Shown here piece by piece: positions 5,054-60,796 of a stretch of DNA of 64,000 nt (position 1 is the first letter of the stretch; each line of letters begins with the position of its first letter). The position numbers were made by a program, and so were the translations under genes. This DNA comes from Shigella phage ESh28: sequence record ON528738; one strand, given 5' to 3'. The notes under the pieces are model-generated. The model was not told where the DNA came from, made no database searches, and was given only the letters and a program-made list of their open reading frames with translations.

Positions 5054-5077
5054 AGTCTCCTTCGGGAGACTTTTTTC
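5054..5077 (+). terminator. rho-independent terminator (UUCG tetraloop hairpin plus T-run)
   Basis: agtctcc-ttcg-ggagact followed by tttttt. Confidence 0.7.
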
Positions 5078-35960: not shown

Positions 35961-36106
35961 AAAGCAAAATTATAACAGTGTTGCTTTTAATCTTGATGAT
36001 TATAATAAGTATATACTATAGTGTAACGGTTCCTCCTATGATTCCAACTATTATTTTAGGTTGGGGTTTATTACTGTTACAAGTTAAATATGAATGTATC
36101 AATTGA
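35957..36106 (+). CDS. small membrane peptide, 49 aa
   Basis: ATGA overlap with imm stop; strongly hydrophobic. Confidence 0.35.
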   Translation: MKSKIITVLLLILMIIISIYYSVTVPPMIPTIILGWGLLLLQVKYECIN

Positions 36107-36113
36107 GGTTTAA

Positions 36114-36854
36114 ATGATTAGTGACTCTATGACAGTTGAAGAAATCCGTCTTCATTTGGGGCTTGCATTAAAAGAAAAAGATTTCGTAGTTGATAAAACT
36201 GGTGTTAAAACTATTGAAATTATTGGCGCATCATTTGTAGCAGATGAACCGTTTATTTTTGGCGCTCTTAATGATGAATACATTCAGCGTGAACTTGAAT
36301 GGTACAAGTCTCAAAGTCTGTTTGTTAAAGATATTCCAGGTGAAACACCAAAGATTTGGCAGCAGGTAGCATCTTCTAAAGGCGAAATTAACTCGAATTA
36401 TGGTTGGGCTATTTGGTCAGAAGATAACTATGCCCAGTATGATATGTGTTTAGCTGAACTTGGTCAAAATCCTGATTCTCGACGTGGCATCATGATTTAT
36501 ACTCGTCCATCTATGCAGTTTGACTACAATAAAGATGGTATGTCAGATTTCATGTGTACGAATACAGTACAGTACCTGATTCGTGATAAGAAAGTCAATG
36601 CAGTAGTAAGCATGCGCTCAAATGACGTGGTCTTCGGATTCCGCAATGATTATGCATGGCAAAAATACGTACTAGATAAATTAGTATCTGATTTGAATGC
36701 AGGCGATTCAACTCGTCAGTATAAAGCAGGTTCTATTATATGGAATGTCGGAAGTCTTCATGTATATTCTCGTCATTTTTACTTGGTTGATCATTGGTGG
36801 AATACTGGCGAAACTCATATTGTGAAAAAAGATTATAACGGTGAGTGGAAATGA
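36114..36854 (+). CDS. 42: dCMP hydroxymethylase gp42
   Basis: 246 aa; thymidylate-synthase-like fold; matches T4 gp42. Confidence 0.9.
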   Translation: MISDSMTVEEIRLHLGLALKEKDFVVDKTGVKTIEIIGASFVADEPFIFGALNDEYIQRELEWYKSQSLFVKDIPGETPKIWQQVASSKGEINSNYGWAIWSEDNYAQYDMCLAELGQNPDSRRGIMIYTRPSMQFDYNKDGMSDFMCTNTVQYLIRDKKVNAVVSMRSNDVVFGFRNDYAWQKYVLDKLVSDLNAGDSTRQYKAGSIIWNVGSLHVYSRHFYLVDHWWNTGETHIVKKDYNGEWK

Positions 36855-37693
36855 TTCAATTCGTAATTCCAAGCTATCAACGTGTAGGGGCAGTTTCTGC
36901 CCTTGATATGTTTCCGACTGATTATGAACCGCATATTGTAGTGCGTGAACACGAAGAAAAAGCTTATTATGATGCCTATGGGTCTAGAGCTAAAATTATA
37001 ACTATTCCTGATGATGTTAATGGAATTTCCGGTACTCGTAAAGCAATTACTGATATGTATGCAGGTCAACGAATCTGGATGATTGACGATGATACTACTA
37101 TTCGTATGAGTTCAATACGAAAAAGAGATGATCGCCGATGTGTAGATAAAATTAATCAATTAACTCGTGAACAGTTCTATGAATTGATTCAATACGTTGA
37201 GGATGCCATGGATTGTGGGTATTATCATGGCCATGCTCGTCTACCAATTTTTAAAATTACTTCATCTTGGGGTAATTATCGTGAAAATTCATATGGATTC
37301 ACAAATACATGGTATGACCTTGGAAAACTTACGACAGAACAAATTGGGTATGGAAAAATTGATTTATGTGAAGATATGTATGCATTTCTCAATTTAATTA
37401 ATCAAGGTTATCCGCATTTGGCCTTGTTCAAATATCTGGTTGTATCTGGAAAAGCACAGGCTCCTGGCGGGTGCAGTTCAATTCGTAGTAATTCTAAACA
37501 TAATAGAGCGCTTGAGCAAATCAATAGAGAGTTTCCAGAGCAAGCTCGTTGGAAAACTTCTAATATTGAAAAACGAAAATCGTTGGGTGAAGAAGACGAA
37601 CCATTAAAGGTTCTTCGCATGTGTGTTTCGCGCAAAGAAAAATCAGAAGCATTTCATAAGTTTAATGTTATTCATCCAATAGCAGTTGATTAA
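36851..37693 (+). CDS. putative DNA sugar-transferase (GT-A-like, DxD motif) at the beta-gt locus
   Basis: Track ORF 36845..37693 trimmed to ATG; 280 aa; VIPSYQR and IWMIDDD motifs; unlike T4 beta-gt (351 aa) as recalled. Confidence 0.6.
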   Translation: MIQFVIPSYQRVGAVSALDMFPTDYEPHIVVREHEEKAYYDAYGSRAKIITIPDDVNGISGTRKAITDMYAGQRIWMIDDDTTIRMSSIRKRDDRRCVDKINQLTREQFYELIQYVEDAMDCGYYHGHARLPIFKITSSWGNYRENSYGFTNTWYDLGKLTTEQIGYGKIDLCEDMYAFLNLINQGYPHLALFKYLVVSGKAQAPGGCSSIRSNSKHNRALEQINREFPEQARWKTSNIEKRKSLGEEDEPLKVLRMCVSRKEKSEAFHKFNVIHPIAVD

Positions 37694-37770
37694 TGCCTAA
37701 ATTTATTGTGTTATAATTACTCTATCTTTAACCAGTGAGGAAAATATAATGATGCCTATGGAAAAAATGA

Positions 37771-38952
37771 ATGTCTATTGCAGATTTAAAATCCCGTTTG
37801 ATTAAAGCTTCCACTTCTAAAATGACTGCTGAACTGACTACATCTAAATTCTTTAATGAAAAGGATGTAATTCGTACAAAAATTCCAATGCTTAATATTG
37901 CTATTTCTGGTGCGATTGATGGCGGTATGCAGTCTGGTTTAACTATTTTCGCAGGGCCTTCTAAACACTTTAAATCAAATATGTCTTTGACTATGGTTGC
38001 GGCATATTTAAACAAATATCCTGACGCGGTTTGTCTATTCTATGATAGTGAATTTGGTATTACTCCAGCTTATTTGCGATCCATGGGAGTTGACCCGGAA
38101 CGAGTAATTCATACGCCAATCCAGTCAGTTGAACAGCTGAAAATTGATATGGTGAATCAGCTTGAAGCTATTGAGCGCGGTGAAAAAGTTATTGTATTCA
38201 TCGACTCAATCGGTAATATGGCTTCTAAGAAAGAAACGGAAGATGCCTTGAATGAAAAATCTGTGGCAGATATGACTCGTGCTAAATCACTGAAGTCATT
38301 ATTCCGTATTGTTACTCCTTACTTTAGCATTAAAAATATTCCATGTGTTGCGGTTAACCATACAATTGAAACAATTGAAATGTTTAGTAAAACCGTGATG
38401 ACAGGTGGTACAGGCGTAATGTATTCGGCTGATACCGTATTCATTATCGGTAAGCGTCAGATTAAAGATGGTTCTGATCTTCAGGGGTATCAATTTGTTC
38501 TAAATGTAGAAAAATCTCGTACCGTTAAAGAAAAAAGTAAATTCTTTATTGATGTTAAATTTGATGGTGGTATCGATCCTTATTCTGGATTGTTAGATAT
38601 GGCTCTAGAATTAGGATTTGTGGTAAAACCTAAAAATGGCTGGTATGCTCGTGAATTTCTTGATGAAGAAACTGGCGAGATGATTCGCGAAGAAAAATCT
38701 TGGCGCGCAAAAGATACCAACTGCACTACATTCTGGGGTCCTTTATTTAAGCATCAACCATTCCGAGATGCTATTAAACGTGCTTATCAGTTAGGTGCTA
38801 TTGATAGTAATGAAATTGTTGAAGCTGAAGTTGATGAATTGATTAACTCAAAGGTTGAAAAATTTAAATCTCCGGAAAGTAAAAGTAAATCAGCTGCTGA
38901 TTTAGAAACTGACCTCGAGCAGTTAAGTGATATGGAAGAATTTAATGAATAA
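37771..38952 (+). CDS. uvsX: recombinase UvsX (RecA-like)
   Basis: 393 aa; Walker A GPSKHFKS, C-terminal acidic tail; matches T4 UvsX. Confidence 0.9.
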   Translation: MSIADLKSRLIKASTSKMTAELTTSKFFNEKDVIRTKIPMLNIAISGAIDGGMQSGLTIFAGPSKHFKSNMSLTMVAAYLNKYPDAVCLFYDSEFGITPAYLRSMGVDPERVIHTPIQSVEQLKIDMVNQLEAIERGEKVIVFIDSIGNMASKKETEDALNEKSVADMTRAKSLKSLFRIVTPYFSIKNIPCVAVNHTIETIEMFSKTVMTGGTGVMYSADTVFIIGKRQIKDGSDLQGYQFVLNVEKSRTVKEKSKFFIDVKFDGGIDPYSGLLDMALELGFVVKPKNGWYAREFLDEETGEMIREEKSWRAKDTNCTTFWGPLFKHQPFRDAIKRAYQLGAIDSNEIVEAEVDELINSKVEKFKSPESKSKSAADLETDLEQLSDMEEFNE

Positions 38953-39289
38953 AGATGATTTAGACTTAGATCTAGAAATTATCGATGAATCCCCCTCTTC
39001 GGAGGGGGAAGAAGAAAGAAAAGAACGTCTTTTTAATGAATCTCTTAAGATAATTAAATCCGCTATGGAAAATGTTATCCAGGAGATTGTCATTAAACTA
39101 GAAGATGGTTCTACGCATATAGTATATGTAACAAAACTGGATTGGGTTAATGGAAAGGTTGTAATGGACTTTGCTGTTCTTGACCAAGAAAGAAAAGCTG
39201 AGTTAGCTCCTCATGTAGAAAAATGTATTACAATGCAACTACAAGATGCATTTAATAAAAGGTCAAAGAAAAAATTTAAATTCTTTTAA
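38945..39289 (+). CDS. 40: probable gene 40 product, about 114 aa
   Basis: Track ORF 38927..39289 trimmed to ATG overlapping uvsX stop; position between uvsX and 41. Confidence 0.5.
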   Translation: MNKDDLDLDLEIIDESPSSEGEEERKERLFNESLKIIKSAMENVIQEIVIKLEDGSTHIVYVTKLDWVNGKVVMDFAVLDQERKAELAPHVEKCITMQLQDAFNKRSKKKFKFF

Positions 39290-39298
39290 GGAGTAAGT

Positions 39299-40726
39299 GT
39301 GGTAGAAATTATTCTTTCTCATCTCATATTTGATCAAGCTTATTTTTCAAAAGTTTGGCCATATATGGATTCAGAATATTTTGAAAGTGGTCCAGCTAAA
39401 AATACGTTCAAATTAATTAAATCTCATGTTAATGAGTATCATAGCGTTCCATCTATTAATGCGTTAAATGTTGCATTAGAAAATAGTTCATTTACTGAAA
39501 CGGAATATTCTGGTGTAAAAACACTTATTTCAAAACTAGCCGATTCTCCAGAAGACCACAGCTGGTTAATAAAAGAAACAGAAAAATATGTTCAGCAAAG
39601 GGCGATGTTTAATGCTACGTCTAAAATAATCGAAATTCAAACTAATGCTGAGCTTCCTCCGGAAAAACGAAATAAGAAAATGCCGGATGTTGGTGCTATT
39701 CCTGACATCATGCGTCAAGCATTATCAATTTCATTTGATAGCTACGTTGGTCATGATTGGATGGATGACTACGAAGCACGCTGGCTATCTTATATGAATA
39801 AAGCTCGTAAGGTTCCATTTAAACTCAGAATTCTAAACAAAATTACTAAAGGCGGAGCTGAGACTGGAACACTGAACGTTTTAATGGCTGGTGTTAACGT
39901 TGGTAAATCATTAGGACTTTGTTCATTAGCAGCAGATTATTTGCAGCTTGGTCATAACGTTCTTTATATCTCCATGGAAATGGCAGAAGAAGTCTGTGCT
40001 AAGCGTATTGATGCTAATATGCTTGATGTTTCTCTTGATGACATTGATGATGGGCATATTTCTTACGCTGAGTATAAAGGAAAAATGGAAAAATGGCGCG
40101 AGAAATCTACTCTCGGTCGTTTAATCGTTAAACAGTATCCTACTGGTGGAGCAGACGCTAATACATTCAGGTCTCTCTTGAACGAATTGAAGCTCAAAAA
40201 GAATTTTGTTCCAACAATCATTATTGTCGACTATCTAGGTATTTGTAAATCTTGCCGCATTAGAGTTTATTCAGAAAATAGTTACACAACTGTTAAAGCT
40301 ATTGCAGAGGAATTGCGTGCTCTGGCTGTTGAAACCGAAACTGTTCTTTGGACTGCAGCACAGGTCGGTAAACAAGCTTGGGACTCTTCTGATGTTAACA
40401 TGAGCGATATTGCAGAATCTGCCGGTCTTCCAGCAACGGCTGATTTTATGCTTGCGGTCATTGAAACCGAGGAGCTAGCAGCTGCTGAACAACAACTTAT
40501 TAAGCAAATCAAATCACGATATGGCGATAAGAATAAGTGGAATAAGTTTTTGATGGGTGTTCAAAAGGGAAATCAGAAATGGGTAGAAATTGAACAAGAT
40601 TCTACTCCAACCGAAGTGAGTGAAGTAGCAGGTTCACAACAGATTCAGGCTGAACAGAATCGCTATCAAAGAAACGAATCAGCTCGAGCTCAGTTAGATG
40701 CTTTGGCAAATGAATTAAAATTTTAG
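39299..40726 (+). CDS. 41: replicative DNA helicase gp41 (DnaB-like)
   Basis: 475 aa, GTG start; MVEIILSHLIFDQAYF, Walker A GVNVGKS; matches T4 gp41. Confidence 0.9.
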   Translation: MVEIILSHLIFDQAYFSKVWPYMDSEYFESGPAKNTFKLIKSHVNEYHSVPSINALNVALENSSFTETEYSGVKTLISKLADSPEDHSWLIKETEKYVQQRAMFNATSKIIEIQTNAELPPEKRNKKMPDVGAIPDIMRQALSISFDSYVGHDWMDDYEARWLSYMNKARKVPFKLRILNKITKGGAETGTLNVLMAGVNVGKSLGLCSLAADYLQLGHNVLYISMEMAEEVCAKRIDANMLDVSLDDIDDGHISYAEYKGKMEKWREKSTLGRLIVKQYPTGGADANTFRSLLNELKLKKNFVPTIIIVDYLGICKSCRIRVYSENSYTTVKAIAEELRALAVETETVLWTAAQVGKQAWDSSDVNMSDIAESAGLPATADFMLAVIETEELAAAEQQLIKQIKSRYGDKNKWNKFLMGVQKGNQKWVEIEQDSTPTEVSEVAGSQQIQAEQNRYQRNESARAQLDALANELKF

Positions 40727-40757
40727 TTTACAAGCTGACAAGACTATGGTATAGTAG
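40724..40757 (+). promoter_or_regulatory. T4-type early promoter
   Basis: gtttac 40726-40731, tggtatagt 40747-40755; -10 lies within inverted repeat caagacta/tagtcttg. Confidence 0.6.
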
Positions 40758-40784
40758 TCTTGTTGGTTAAATGAGGAGATTGTT

Positions 40785-40967
40785 ATGGAATTGGTAAAGG
40801 TAGTTTTTATGGGGTGGTTTAAGAATGAAAGTATGTTTACTAAAGAAATCACAATGATGAAAGATGACGTTCAATGGGCTACTACTCAATATGCTGAAGT
40901 TAATAAAGCATTAGTTAAAGCTTTCATTGATGACAAGAAAGTATGTGAAGTGGATTGCCGAGGATAA
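40785..40967 (+). CDS. dmd: Dmd antitoxin (inhibitor of RnlA/LsoA)
   Basis: 60 aa, MELVKVVFMGWFKNESMF; length, own early promoter and position next to gene 41 match T4 dmd (61.5). Confidence 0.7.
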   Translation: MELVKVVFMGWFKNESMFTKEITMMKDDVQWATTQYAEVNKALVKAFIDDKKVCEVDCRG

Positions 40968-40968
40968 T

Positions 40969-41226
40969 ATGCATATTGTTTTATTTAAACCTACTCCATA
41001 TAACGTCAGGAAAAATACTCAATTCAAAGCACTTATTGCAGATACGTGGGAATTGGTGTTAGATATTCCAGCAGAAGAAAGTCCTCCATTTGGTCGAGTG
41101 GAATTTATTAAGTTTGCTGTACGTCCTACGAAGAGACAGATTCGTCAGTGTAAAAGGTATTTTCGTAAAATCGTTAAGCTAGAGAAACAGTTTGTAACAT
41201 GTGATTATGCAGAAGTTTTAAAATAG
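40969..41226 (+). CDS. hypothetical protein, 85 aa (T4 61.4 position)
   Basis: Track ORF 40927..41226 trimmed to ATG after cgaggataat. Confidence 0.5.
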   Translation: MHIVLFKPTPYNVRKNTQFKALIADTWELVLDIPAEESPPFGRVEFIKFAVRPTKRQIRQCKRYFRKIVKLEKQFVTCDYAEVLK

Positions 41227-41260
41227 CTGTTTACTTTTGTTGGAAATTGATATACTATAT
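41227..41260 (+). promoter_or_regulatory. T4-type early promoter
   Basis: gtttac 41229-41234, tatactatat -10 region. Confidence 0.5.
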
Positions 41261-41286
41261 AAACATAAACTACTGAGGAGATTATC

Positions 41287-41580
41287 ATGAAAAAATTTAT
41301 CTTTGCTACAATTTTTGCTTTAGCTTCTTGTGCTGCTCAGCCTGCTATGGCAGGATATGATAAAGATTTGTGTGAATGGTCTATGACTGCAGATCAGACT
41401 GAAGTTGAAACTCAAATTGAAGCGGATATTATGAATATCGTTGAGCGCGATCGTCCTGAAATGAAAGCTGAAGTGCAAAAACAACTTAAGTCTGGTGGTG
41501 TAATGCAGTATAATTATGTTCTGTATTGCGATAAAAACTTTAATAACAAAAATATCGTAACCGAAATCACAGGCGAATAA
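41287..41580 (+). CDS. sp: spackle periplasmic protein Sp
   Basis: 97 aa, signal peptide MKKFIFATIFALASCAAQPAMA; matches T4 Sp (61.3) as recalled. Confidence 0.7.
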   Translation: MKKFIFATIFALASCAAQPAMAGYDKDLCEWSMTADQTEVETQIEADIMNIVERDRPEMKAEVQKQLKSGGVMQYNYVLYCDKNFNNKNIVTEITGE

Positions 41581-41581
41581 T

Positions 41582-42214
41582 ATGATTTATTATATGCACA
41601 AAAATCCACCGTTTAAATACGGTAAATTTCCTGATGCACAATGTTATAACATAACGCCTGATGAAAATAACCGTGGATATCTTATTGGCACAATTTTTGT
41701 AATTGTTAAAGATAACGAAATCGTTGCCTGGGCAGATTTTAAAGGTACAACATATGATGTTAATCCGGTGCCTTTCACATATTACAATTTAATGGATTTG
41801 GCATACGATTATAATTGGTTTAATCATGACACGTTGGCTCATATTGAAGGTGTAGGATTTGACATCTCTTATTCTAGCTACTCATTGTGTCCTATGAGTC
41901 GGGCTCATAAAGAACCTGAATATTTTTCATTTAGGAAACGTGTAAACTTTAAACGCAACACAGAGTATGTCGGTGGAATCTTTGTTAAAGATAATCGAAT
42001 TACTCGCATTATTTATCCTTTGGGCTGTGGTCAAAAAGATATTGATGTTGATTTAGACTTTACTGAAAACATCATTAATCATATTGCTTCTGTGTATTTT
42101 GGTATCGATCACAAAATTGTAATATGTGGATATGAATTACCGTTTGAAGAACAACCTAAAGTAAAAGTTTCTATTGACGATCAAATTTTTAATGCTTTTA
42201 TGAATAAAGGTTAA
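41582..42214 (+). CDS. 61.2-like protein, 210 aa (possible anti-DarT factor AdfA homolog)
   Basis: Track ORF; position matches T4 61.2; shares VKDN motif and 14-aa C-terminal tail with the next ORF. Confidence 0.5.
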   Translation: MIYYMHKNPPFKYGKFPDAQCYNITPDENNRGYLIGTIFVIVKDNEIVAWADFKGTTYDVNPVPFTYYNLMDLAYDYNWFNHDTLAHIEGVGFDISYSSYSLCPMSRAHKEPEYFSFRKRVNFKRNTEYVGGIFVKDNRITRIIYPLGCGQKDIDVDLDFTENIINHIASVYFGIDHKIVICGYELPFEEQPKVKVSIDDQIFNAFMNKG

Positions 42215-59857: not shown

Positions 59858-60796
59858 ATGTACAATATTAAATGCCTGACCAAAAACGAACAAGCTGAAA
59901 TTGTTAAATTGTATTCAAGTGGTAATTACACCCAACAGGAATTGGCTGATTGGCAAGGTGTATCGGTTGACACAATCCGTCGTGTTTTGAAAAATGCTGA
60001 AGAAGCTAAACGCTCTAAAGTTACTATTAGTGGTGATATTACAGTTAAAGTTAATAGCGATGCAGTTATTGCTCCAGTTGCTAAATCTGACATTATTTGG
60101 AATGCATCTAAAAAATTCATTTCAATTACTGTTGACGGTGTAACTTATAATGCAACTCCTAATACTCATTCAAACTTCCAGGAAATTCTTAATCTGCTCG
60201 TAGCAGATAAGTTAGAAGAAGCGGCACAAAAAATTAATGTTCGTCGCGCTGTTGAAAAATATATTTCCGGTGATGTTCGAATTGAAGGTGGAAGCTTGTT
60301 CTATCAAAATATTGAATTGCGGTCTGGTTTGGTTGATCGTATTCTTGATTCGATGGAAAAAGGTGAAAACTTTGAATTTTATTTTCCGTTCTTGGAAAAT
60401 CTGCTGGAAAACCCAAGCCAGAAAGCGGTATCTCGACTCTTTGATTTCTTGGTAGCAAACGATATTGAAATTACAGAAGATGGTTACTTCTATGCTTGGA
60501 AAGTAGTTCGCAGCAATTACTTTGACTGTCACTCAAATACCTTTGATAACAGTCCGGGTAAAGTAGTTAAAATGCCGCGTACTCGCGTGAATGACGATGA
60601 TACACAAACTTGTTCTCGTGGTCTGCATGTGTGTTCTAAATCTTATATTCGTCACTTTGGCAGTTCAACCAGCCGAGTTGTAAAAGTTAAAGTGCATCCG
60701 CGTGATGTAGTATCAATTCCGATTGATTACAACGATGCTAAAATGCGTACCTGCCAATACGAAGTAGTTGAAGACGTTACTGAACAATTTAAATAA
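59858..60796 (+). CDS. rIIB: rIIB
   Basis: 312 aa, MYNIKCLTKNEQAEIVKLYSSGNYTQQELADW; matches T4 rIIB. Confidence 0.9.
   Translation: MYNIKCLTKNEQAEIVKLYSSGNYTQQELADWQGVSVDTIRRVLKNAEEAKRSKVTISGDITVKVNSDAVIAPVAKSDIIWNASKKFISITVDGVTYNATPNTHSNFQEILNLLVADKLEEAAQKINVRRAVEKYISGDVRIEGGSLFYQNIELRSGLVDRILDSMEKGENFEFYFPFLENLLENPSQKAVSRLFDFLVANDIEITEDGYFYAWKVVRSNYFDCHSNTFDNSPGKVVKMPRTRVNDDDTQTCSRGLHVCSKSYIRHFGSSTSRVVKVKVHPRDVVSIPIDYNDAKMRTCQYEVVEDVTEQFK

Follow-up and report, generated by a model that had tools for sequence, protein, structure and literature searches.

An RNA hairpin kept by selection at the uvsX-gene 40 boundary of Shigella phage ESh28, a probable transcript-boundary element already described in T4

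Intercistronic hairpins that stabilise mRNA block 3' exonucleases and set differential expression, as exemplified by the malE-malF REP of Escherichia coli and by Rhodobacter puf. A further class of stem-loop, the C(UUCG)G hairpins of T4 mRNA, reportedly goes back to Tuerk et al. in 1988. The UUCG tetraloop itself was first recognised in T4 mRNA (Hall, 2015, PMC4371310). The closest described system is the uvsX-40-41 operon of T4, in which polycistronic RNA from upstream early promoters and from the middle promoter PuvsX has been published to span all three genes. According to Fig. 5B of PMC12152347, which relays Hinton (1989; J Biol Chem 264:14432, 14440), an in vivo RNA 3' end is found directly after a stem-loop in this operon, and more RNA ends at the site in rho-mutant infections, as related in the same paper. 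Kim et al. (2025, PMC12152347) studied the 358 nt upstream of T4 gene 41 and reported that a reporter carrying this region is raised about 2.6-fold by GoF(D25Y), via a longer RNA half-life. The effects of rho and of GoF have been argued to be post-transcriptional (PMC2988021, PMC12152347), as Rop rescues and GoF(D25Y) lengthens RNA half-life, and the review by Hinton (PMC2988021) knows of no nuclease acting at the uvsX-40 site. A literature search for Term-seq or cappable-seq 3'-end maps of T4 returned nothing usable.

The locus considered here belongs to Shigella phage ESh28 (sequence record ON528738), of which one stretch of 64,000 nt, hereafter the window, was analysed; it is 98.4% identical to T4 and 99.8% identical to Escherichia phage vB_EcoM_G29 (Tequatrovirus). 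The features of the locus are collected in Table 1. The TAA stop of uvsX (38950-38952) and the ATG of gene 40 (38945) overlap in ATGAATAA (38945-38952), an arrangement that is identical in the T4 annotation, and because this overlap leaves no intergenic spacer the hairpin lies in coding sequence, its stem starting 38 nt past the uvsX stop and 46 nt into the gene 40 ORF. It spans gene 40 codons 16-22 (TCC CCC TCT TCG GAG GGG GAA), which encode SPSSEGE within the variable acidic N-terminal tail of gp40, outside the Pfam core. The reading frame of gene 40 extends 5' to a GTG at 38927, six codons before the annotated ATG. Upstream of uvsX, a 282-aa ORF on the + strand (36845-37693) has a Pfam match to TAGT (TET-associated glycosyltransferase) in the place where T4 has the segA homing endonuclease, so that the phage departs from T4 in gene content and possibly in DNA glucosylation. 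At the other end of the locus, 12 nt past the gene 41 stop, a 9-bp hairpin (ACAAGACTA-TGGTATAG-TAGTCTTGT, 40738-40763; -14.6 kcal/mol for the extended form in T4) lies partly within a sigma-70-like promoter match at 40727-40755 (10/12, with TG).

Table 1. Positions in the 64,000-nt window of the hairpin, its parts, the neighbouring genes and the other hairpins of the same loop class.
Feature	Position	Strand	Remarks
uvsX (RecA-like recombinase)	37771..38952	+	Pfam T4_UVSX_C, RecA; cistron upstream of hairpin
gene 40 (head vertex assembly chaperone, 114 aa)	38945..39289	+	Pfam Phage_head_chap, residues 44-99
gene 41 (replicative helicase)	39299..40726	+	Pfam DnaB_C; cistron downstream of hairpin
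hairpin UCCCCCUC-UUCG-GAGGGGGA	38990..39009	+	8 bp = 7 core pairs and closing U-A; C(UUCG)G tetraloop
5' arm CCCCCUC	38991..38997	+	parts of codons S16, P17 and S18
UUCG tetraloop	38998..39001	+	third base of S18 and codon S19
3' arm GAGGGGG	39002..39008	+	codons E20, G21 and first base of E22; rare GAG, GGG
A/G-rich tail AGAAGAAAGAAAAGAA	39010..39025	+	place of the U tract in an intrinsic terminator; region of the published 3' end
12 further C(UUCG)G hairpins	5054, 9031, 22069, 24436, 25706, 30419, 32364, 44893, 55513, 60794, 61023, 63469	+	

The 358 nt upstream of T4 gene 41 correspond to positions 38941-39298 of the window, an interval whose only strong compact stem-loop is the one at 38990-39009, the runners-up being imperfect 38-44-nt structures of -11.2 and -9.7 kcal/mol. 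As the sole such structure in the interval, the hairpin can, we infer, safely be equated with the published T4 uvsX-40-41 stem-loop. The element is already described in T4 and is not a new kind of element; what the present comparison adds, and what was not found described in the literature examined, is covariation and family-wide positional conservation, together with a turnover of stem sequences and a movement of the hairpin between coding and non-coding sequence. In the record of Escherichia phage vB_Eco_NR1 (LR990704.1; L114 619-640), a 'terminator' is annotated at the hairpin, on the other strand from gene 40, in what looks like an automatic prediction.

The core of the stem joins 38991-38997 to 39002-39008 by six C-G pairs and one U-A pair and is closed below by a further U-A pair, 38990:39009; as DNA it reads TCCCCCTC-TTCG-GAGGGGGA. 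The wobble positions of the 5' arm, 38992 and 38995, pair with the wobble positions 39007 and 39004. Folded alone, the hairpin has a minimum free energy of -15.9 to -16.7 kcal/mol, and inside the 358-nt interval from the end of uvsX to gene 41 it forms with a pairing probability of 0.998-1.0. No U tract follows the stem, as the next 8 nt (AGAAGAAA) hold 0/8 T; a consensus terminator scan did not call the hairpin, and an Rfam covariance-model scan of window positions 36000-42000 (E <= 10) placed no family at the site. The initial annotation, which had described a GC-rich, seven-pair UUCG hairpin inside the 5' end of gene 40, encoding SPSSEGE and devoid of a U tract, is thus borne out at 38990-39009, as is its remark that the hairpin stands out in an AT-rich genome.

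Several measures put the hairpin beyond chance. In stability it ranks first among 243 entries for perfect hairpins in the 64-kb window, counting stems of 6 bp or more. Hairpins of 7 or more perfect pairs, at least 6 of them G-C, occur twice in the window as against 0.07 times in dinucleotide shuffles; if 5 G-C pairs suffice, the count is 7 as against 0.33. By the codon usage of 48 long ORFs of the window, the stem draws on CCC (2.2% of Pro), GGG (5.9% of Gly) and GAG (15% of Glu), and the hairpin further includes the rare Ser codons TCC (4.1%) and TCG (5.3%). When the peptide ESPSSEGEE is recoded synonymously with usage weighting, only about 2e-6 to 5e-6 of the encodings are at least as stable as the actual one, which lies ~1 kcal/mol or less from the best possible stability, the median over encodings being about -6 kcal/mol. 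Shuffling of the 28-121-nt segment around the hairpin gave a z of only about -2 to -2.5; this null was set aside because it keeps the G-run/C-run composition that is itself the anomaly, and the window rank, the whole-window shuffles and the synonymous recoding were relied on instead.

The structure of the hairpin is under strong selection. Eleven distinct sequences in the same codon register could be compared, from Tequatrovirus, Mosigvirus, Karamvirus, Gelderlandvirus, a Jiaodavirus-like Klebsiella phage and Erwinia phage Cronus, and all 7 core pairs are paired in all 11 sequences of these six phage groups, with 0 unpaired cells. Compensatory double changes are present at 4 of the 7 core pairs, and the observed values were matched in 0/500 shuffles. 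At pair 38995:39004, which joins two wobble positions, CCC/GAG has become CCU/GAA in Mosigvirus, and at the likewise wobble-wobble pair 38992:39007, UCC/GGG has become UCU/GGA in the Jiaodavirus-like Klebsiella phage; such changes are silent in the protein, and only pairing can explain them. The 20-nt hairpin is identical in T4 (L001), and among relatives the loop varies (UUCG, UUUG, UCAG and GGAA, with CGAA in Shigella phage SHBML-50-1) while the stem is retained.

Some individual records depart from this picture in detail. In SHBML-50-1 (KX130864.1; L115 101-160), the same stem carries a reverse-complemented loop, TTCG to CGAA, homologous to window positions 38998-39001 and in frame (SPSEEGE), which may have arisen by a small inversion of the hairpin loop at the palindrome or be an artefact of assembly; seven phage records share the same 90-95% identity band. 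In L015 (about 801-825) and L043 (IMGVR_UViG_2974573174_000001), the 5' arm has C4 in place of C5, which shortens the stem and shifts the frame at the gene 40 N-terminus; the cause may be a sequencing error in the homopolymer or a natural frameshift.

Beyond the phages that share this stem, it is the position of a hairpin that recurs. Among 18 genus-level loci of 1.2-3.8 kb, 14 have their top local hairpin 4-61 nt past the uvsX stop, and in 2 more a hairpin there is a near-tie for the top. Tegunavirus and Acinetobacter Lazarusvirus have no strong hairpin after uvsX. In Tegunavirus BRC001 (L026 756-773) and Acinetobacter phage AB-Navy4 (L028 753-772), a UUCG hairpin lies between genes 40 and 41. 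Among 80 IMG/VR loci, phylogenetically non-independent and found with a 12-sequence UvsX C-terminal alignment, the top hairpin falls -15 to +90 nt from the uvsX stop in 55, where position alone predicts ~6%. At least 15 unrelated stems occur near the uvsX stop, coding or intergenic, among them CCCCCUC/GAGGGGG, GAGGGUC/GACCCUC, GGCGGAA/UUCCGCC, GGAGGGAGC/GCUCCUUCU, GGAAUCCUC/GAGGAUUCC, GAGGCUCC/GGAGCUUC and CUGGCUGGG/CUCAGCCAG, and the peptides they encode include SPSSEGE, EEGPSDPR, AEGAKAPS, EESSDEDS, NEAPKGAS, SLAGETQPV and others. In genomes that keep uvsX and gene 40 free of overlap, the hairpin falls between the genes, as in Morganella MP1, Shewanella Thanatos-2, Citrobacter IME-CF2, Slopekvirus phiEap-3, Aeromonas Asswx_1 and loci L061, L076 and L083-87. 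As the stems differ in sequence, in peptide and in coding status, the conserved trait is a stable stem-loop bordering uvsX on its downstream side. It was considered whether the N-terminal tail of gp40 arose by overprinting of a former intergenic spacer, an idea weakened by MP1, which has both an acidic tail and an intergenic hairpin. In several genera, a second recurrent hairpin of -8 to -13 kcal/mol is found within gene 41, ~35-85 nt from its 5' end (L017 845-869, L018 855-879, L020 845-869, L023 874-902, L024 847-875, L025 844-872); its equivalent in the window would be just inside gene 41, and it may be structural or may reflect the conserved peptide DQAYFSKVWP.

The hairpin belongs to the C(UUCG)G mRNA hairpin class of T4. 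It possesses the C-UUCG-G hexamer with a C-G closing pair and complementary arms (7-8 perfect pairs), and it carries UUCG, not CGAA, on the transcribed strand, although the intercistronic location of the class is replaced by one within gene 40. Over the 64-kb window, UUCG-loop hairpins number 13 on the + (mRNA) strand against 2 weak ones on the - strand. Of the 13, 11 lie between genes, one shares sequence with the 3' end of a short ORF and one faces an ORF of the - strand, and the hairpin at 38990-39009 is the only UUCG hairpin deep inside a confirmed gene. About half of the 12 further members listed in Table 1 are followed by a U run in the manner of a terminator and the rest are bare; the bare hairpins at 60794 and 63469 directly precede a GAGG Shine-Dalgarno sequence. 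In the relatives, + strand loops are mostly UUCG or GNRA, the complements of which have no special stability, and some relatives have G-U pairs (L022/L073, L046). The strand asymmetry, the UUCG/GNRA loops and the G-U pairs together argue that the functional form is the sense RNA, and not the DNA or an antisense transcript.

Taken together, these data allow a model in which the hairpin is probably the uvsX-distal transcript-boundary element of the uvsX-40-41 operon, acting as a 3'-end-protecting or leaky barrier. This model proposes that the stem-loop folds in polycistronic RNA when no ribosome is passing gene 40 codons 16-22, and that RNAs cut or degraded further downstream would be shortened 3'-to-5' up to the hairpin base, where exonucleases would stall and leave a stable uvsX message ending just past the stem-loop. 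The 3' end is itself published, as relayed in PMC12152347, and the trimming would be the route by which it arises. In this manner, the amount of uvsX message could be uncoupled from that of the 40-41 message as infection proceeds, possibly for a stoichiometric purpose. The level of gene 41 mRNA would then depend on RNA continuing beyond the hairpin site, and the mRNA for gp41 would become sensitive to RNA-binding factors such as Rho or GoF(D25Y), through which the published rho and GoF phenotypes may be linked to the hairpin. Folding would, in addition, compete with ribosomes brought into gene 40 by coupling to uvsX. A barrier of this kind is in keeping with a structure that is retained by selection both in its pairing and in its position. 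RNA 3' ends do occur here, in T4 directly after the stem-loop as PMC12152347 relays, and the stem pairing that the initial annotation had proposed to follow across T-even phages covaries at 4 of the 7 core pairs without a broken pair; its leading suggestion, that of a 3' stabiliser or 3'-end element of uvsX RNA, is on these two grounds the best supported.

Alternatively, the hairpin may be a non-canonical terminator or attenuator, at which polymerase pauses and releases without a U tract to an extent set by Rho and Nus factors, thereby limiting entry into 40-41, which we consider unlikely though deserving of weight. The 3' end directly past the stem-loop and its increase in rho mutants, as PMC12152347 relates them, could be read in this way. 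Moreover, the intergenic counterparts often possess a U tract and are terminator-like in L061, L076, L085-87 and Thanatos-2, so that the ancestral role could be termination, and U-rich tails follow some in-ORF versions, in Dhakavirus (GUUAUUAU) and in L072 (UAUUUCUG). In the unrelated Erwinia jumbo phage vB_EamM_ChrisDB (NC_031126.1; L116 about 298-340), the identical 20-nt hairpin TCCCCCTCTTCGGAGGGGGA is intergenic, is followed by TTTTACTTTTCTTTTTTT and is terminator-like. However, the G-C-rich stem-loop of a canonical terminator is here not joined by a U tract 0-2 nt past the stem, all Tequatrovirus copies having zero U in the 8 nt that follow. RNA-seq of T4 at 5 min (PMC6024815 Table S1) gives 54,139 reads over the 1176 nt of uvsX (46.0 reads/nt), 13,723 over the 345 nt of gene 40 (39.8 reads/nt) and 61,535 over the 1428 nt of gene 41 (43.1 reads/nt), and thus at this single early time point the marked downstream drop of a terminator is not seen; the flat profile shows that any effect of the hairpin is small early in infection. 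As the U tract is lacking, the 5-min density is flat and the rho and GoF effects are argued in later work to be post-transcriptional, a barrier is favoured over an efficient terminator, while a weak, factor-dependent contribution from pausing or termination is possible beside the barrier role. A role chiefly in tuning the translation of gene 40, by slowing ribosomes that reinitiate from uvsX and so keeping gp40 low, appears improbable. The location at codons 16-22 would suit it, as would the weak SD-like GGAAGA of gene 40, which together with the uvsX overlap suggests coupling, and uvsX and 40 share an RNA/protein timing class (PMC9697503). However, the structure is beyond the initiation footprint, and intergenic hairpins upstream of the gene 40 RBS (MP1, Thanatos-2, IME-CF2, phiEap-3, Asswx_1) cannot affect its elongation, nor does the hairpin precede gene 40 in Tegunavirus and Lazarusvirus. 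Given these intergenic and post-gene-40 versions, modulation of gene 40 translation cannot be the conserved function, and it may be a side effect in T4-type phages.

Readings that deny the sense RNA a function of its own fare worse. It is very improbable that the element is a DNA palindrome, an antisense (- strand) terminator or an endonuclease target for RegB (GGAG) or RNase III. The 'terminator' placed opposite gene 40 in the vB_Eco_NR1 record and the somewhat U-rich - strand tail UUCAUCGAUAAUUUCU could be cited for an antisense role, the putative loop inversion of SHBML-50-1 would show that self-recombination at the palindrome is possible, and GGAG is present in the stem. Against these stand the 13-to-2 strand asymmetry and the confinement of UUCG/GNRA loops to the + strand. 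There are, further, no - strand genes or late promoter nearby, as a scan of the window for the late promoter TATAAATA found only 4115, 44603 and 54942, none near the hairpin, the last being the nearest on the - strand. RegB was rejected on the grounds that GGAG is lost in Mosigvirus (GGAAGGGG, GGAA) and is buried in the stem, and RNase III on the grounds that an 8-bp stem is too short; and as the stems differ completely between genera, no sequence-specific site is conserved. The initial annotation had also offered an RNase processing site and a modulator of gene 40 translation, and comparison of sequences between phages makes either less likely as the conserved function. Finally, the inverted repeat might be nothing but a by-product of the conserved gp40 peptide PS-x-EGE, as SPS[SQLE]EGE is common to Tequatro-, Mosig-, Karam-, Gelderland- and Jiaoda-like phages and the peptide alone tends to some hairpin, to judge from the median encoding. 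This reading is effectively excluded: the stability of the actual encoding, written in the rarest codons, is reached by only 2-5 synonymous encodings per million, wobble positions that pair with one another have changed in a compensatory and synonymous manner, hairpins at the same place in other genera go with entirely different peptides or with non-coding DNA, and the stretch concerned is not part of the conserved Pfam core of gp40.

That phages across Straboviridae retain a hairpin at the end of uvsX, built from many unrelated stems, speaks for a functionally important boundary between the messages for recombinase and helicase. A broader interpretation, which is tentative and rather doubtful as a whole, would see a family-wide, position-specific 'uvsX boundary' RNA element, a conditional attenuator or stabiliser that sets the recombinase:helicase mRNA ratio via host Rho and the phage LSm-like GoF, that is formed by at least 15 unrelated stems, that moves between intergenic and coding sequence, and that shapes the N-terminal peptide of gp40, Pro/Ser codons being complementary to Glu/Gly codons. 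If true, the unexplained nusD/goF phenotype would thereby have a cis target. The effect of Rho alleles and of GoF(D25Y) on gene 41 mRNA has been a question since 1989, for which the hairpin is the obvious candidate cis element; in its own right, it illustrates cleanly how an RNA structure can prevail over codon usage within a gene.

In comparison with known systems, the ESh28 hairpin has the same locus and the same sequence as the T4 uvsX-40-41 stem-loop, from which it does not differ in substance. With the C(UUCG)G hairpins of T4 mRNA it shares the CUUCGG, the C-G closing pair, the inverted repeat and the transcribed strand, and unlike the other 12 of the window it is in a gene and is the most G-C-rich and most stable. 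Canonical terminators, such as that of ChrisDB and those at 5054, 9031 and 44893 of the window, resemble it in their G-C-rich stem, stable tetraloop and location after a stop codon; it differs from them in its T-free tail and in the essentially absent drop in RNA-seq density at 5 min. By analogy with the malE-malF REP and Rhodobacter puf, it would be a stable stem-loop 3' of an abundantly needed upstream cistron, with the 3' end at the base of the stem, but unlike these it lies within translated sequence, where its folding would compete with ribosomes.
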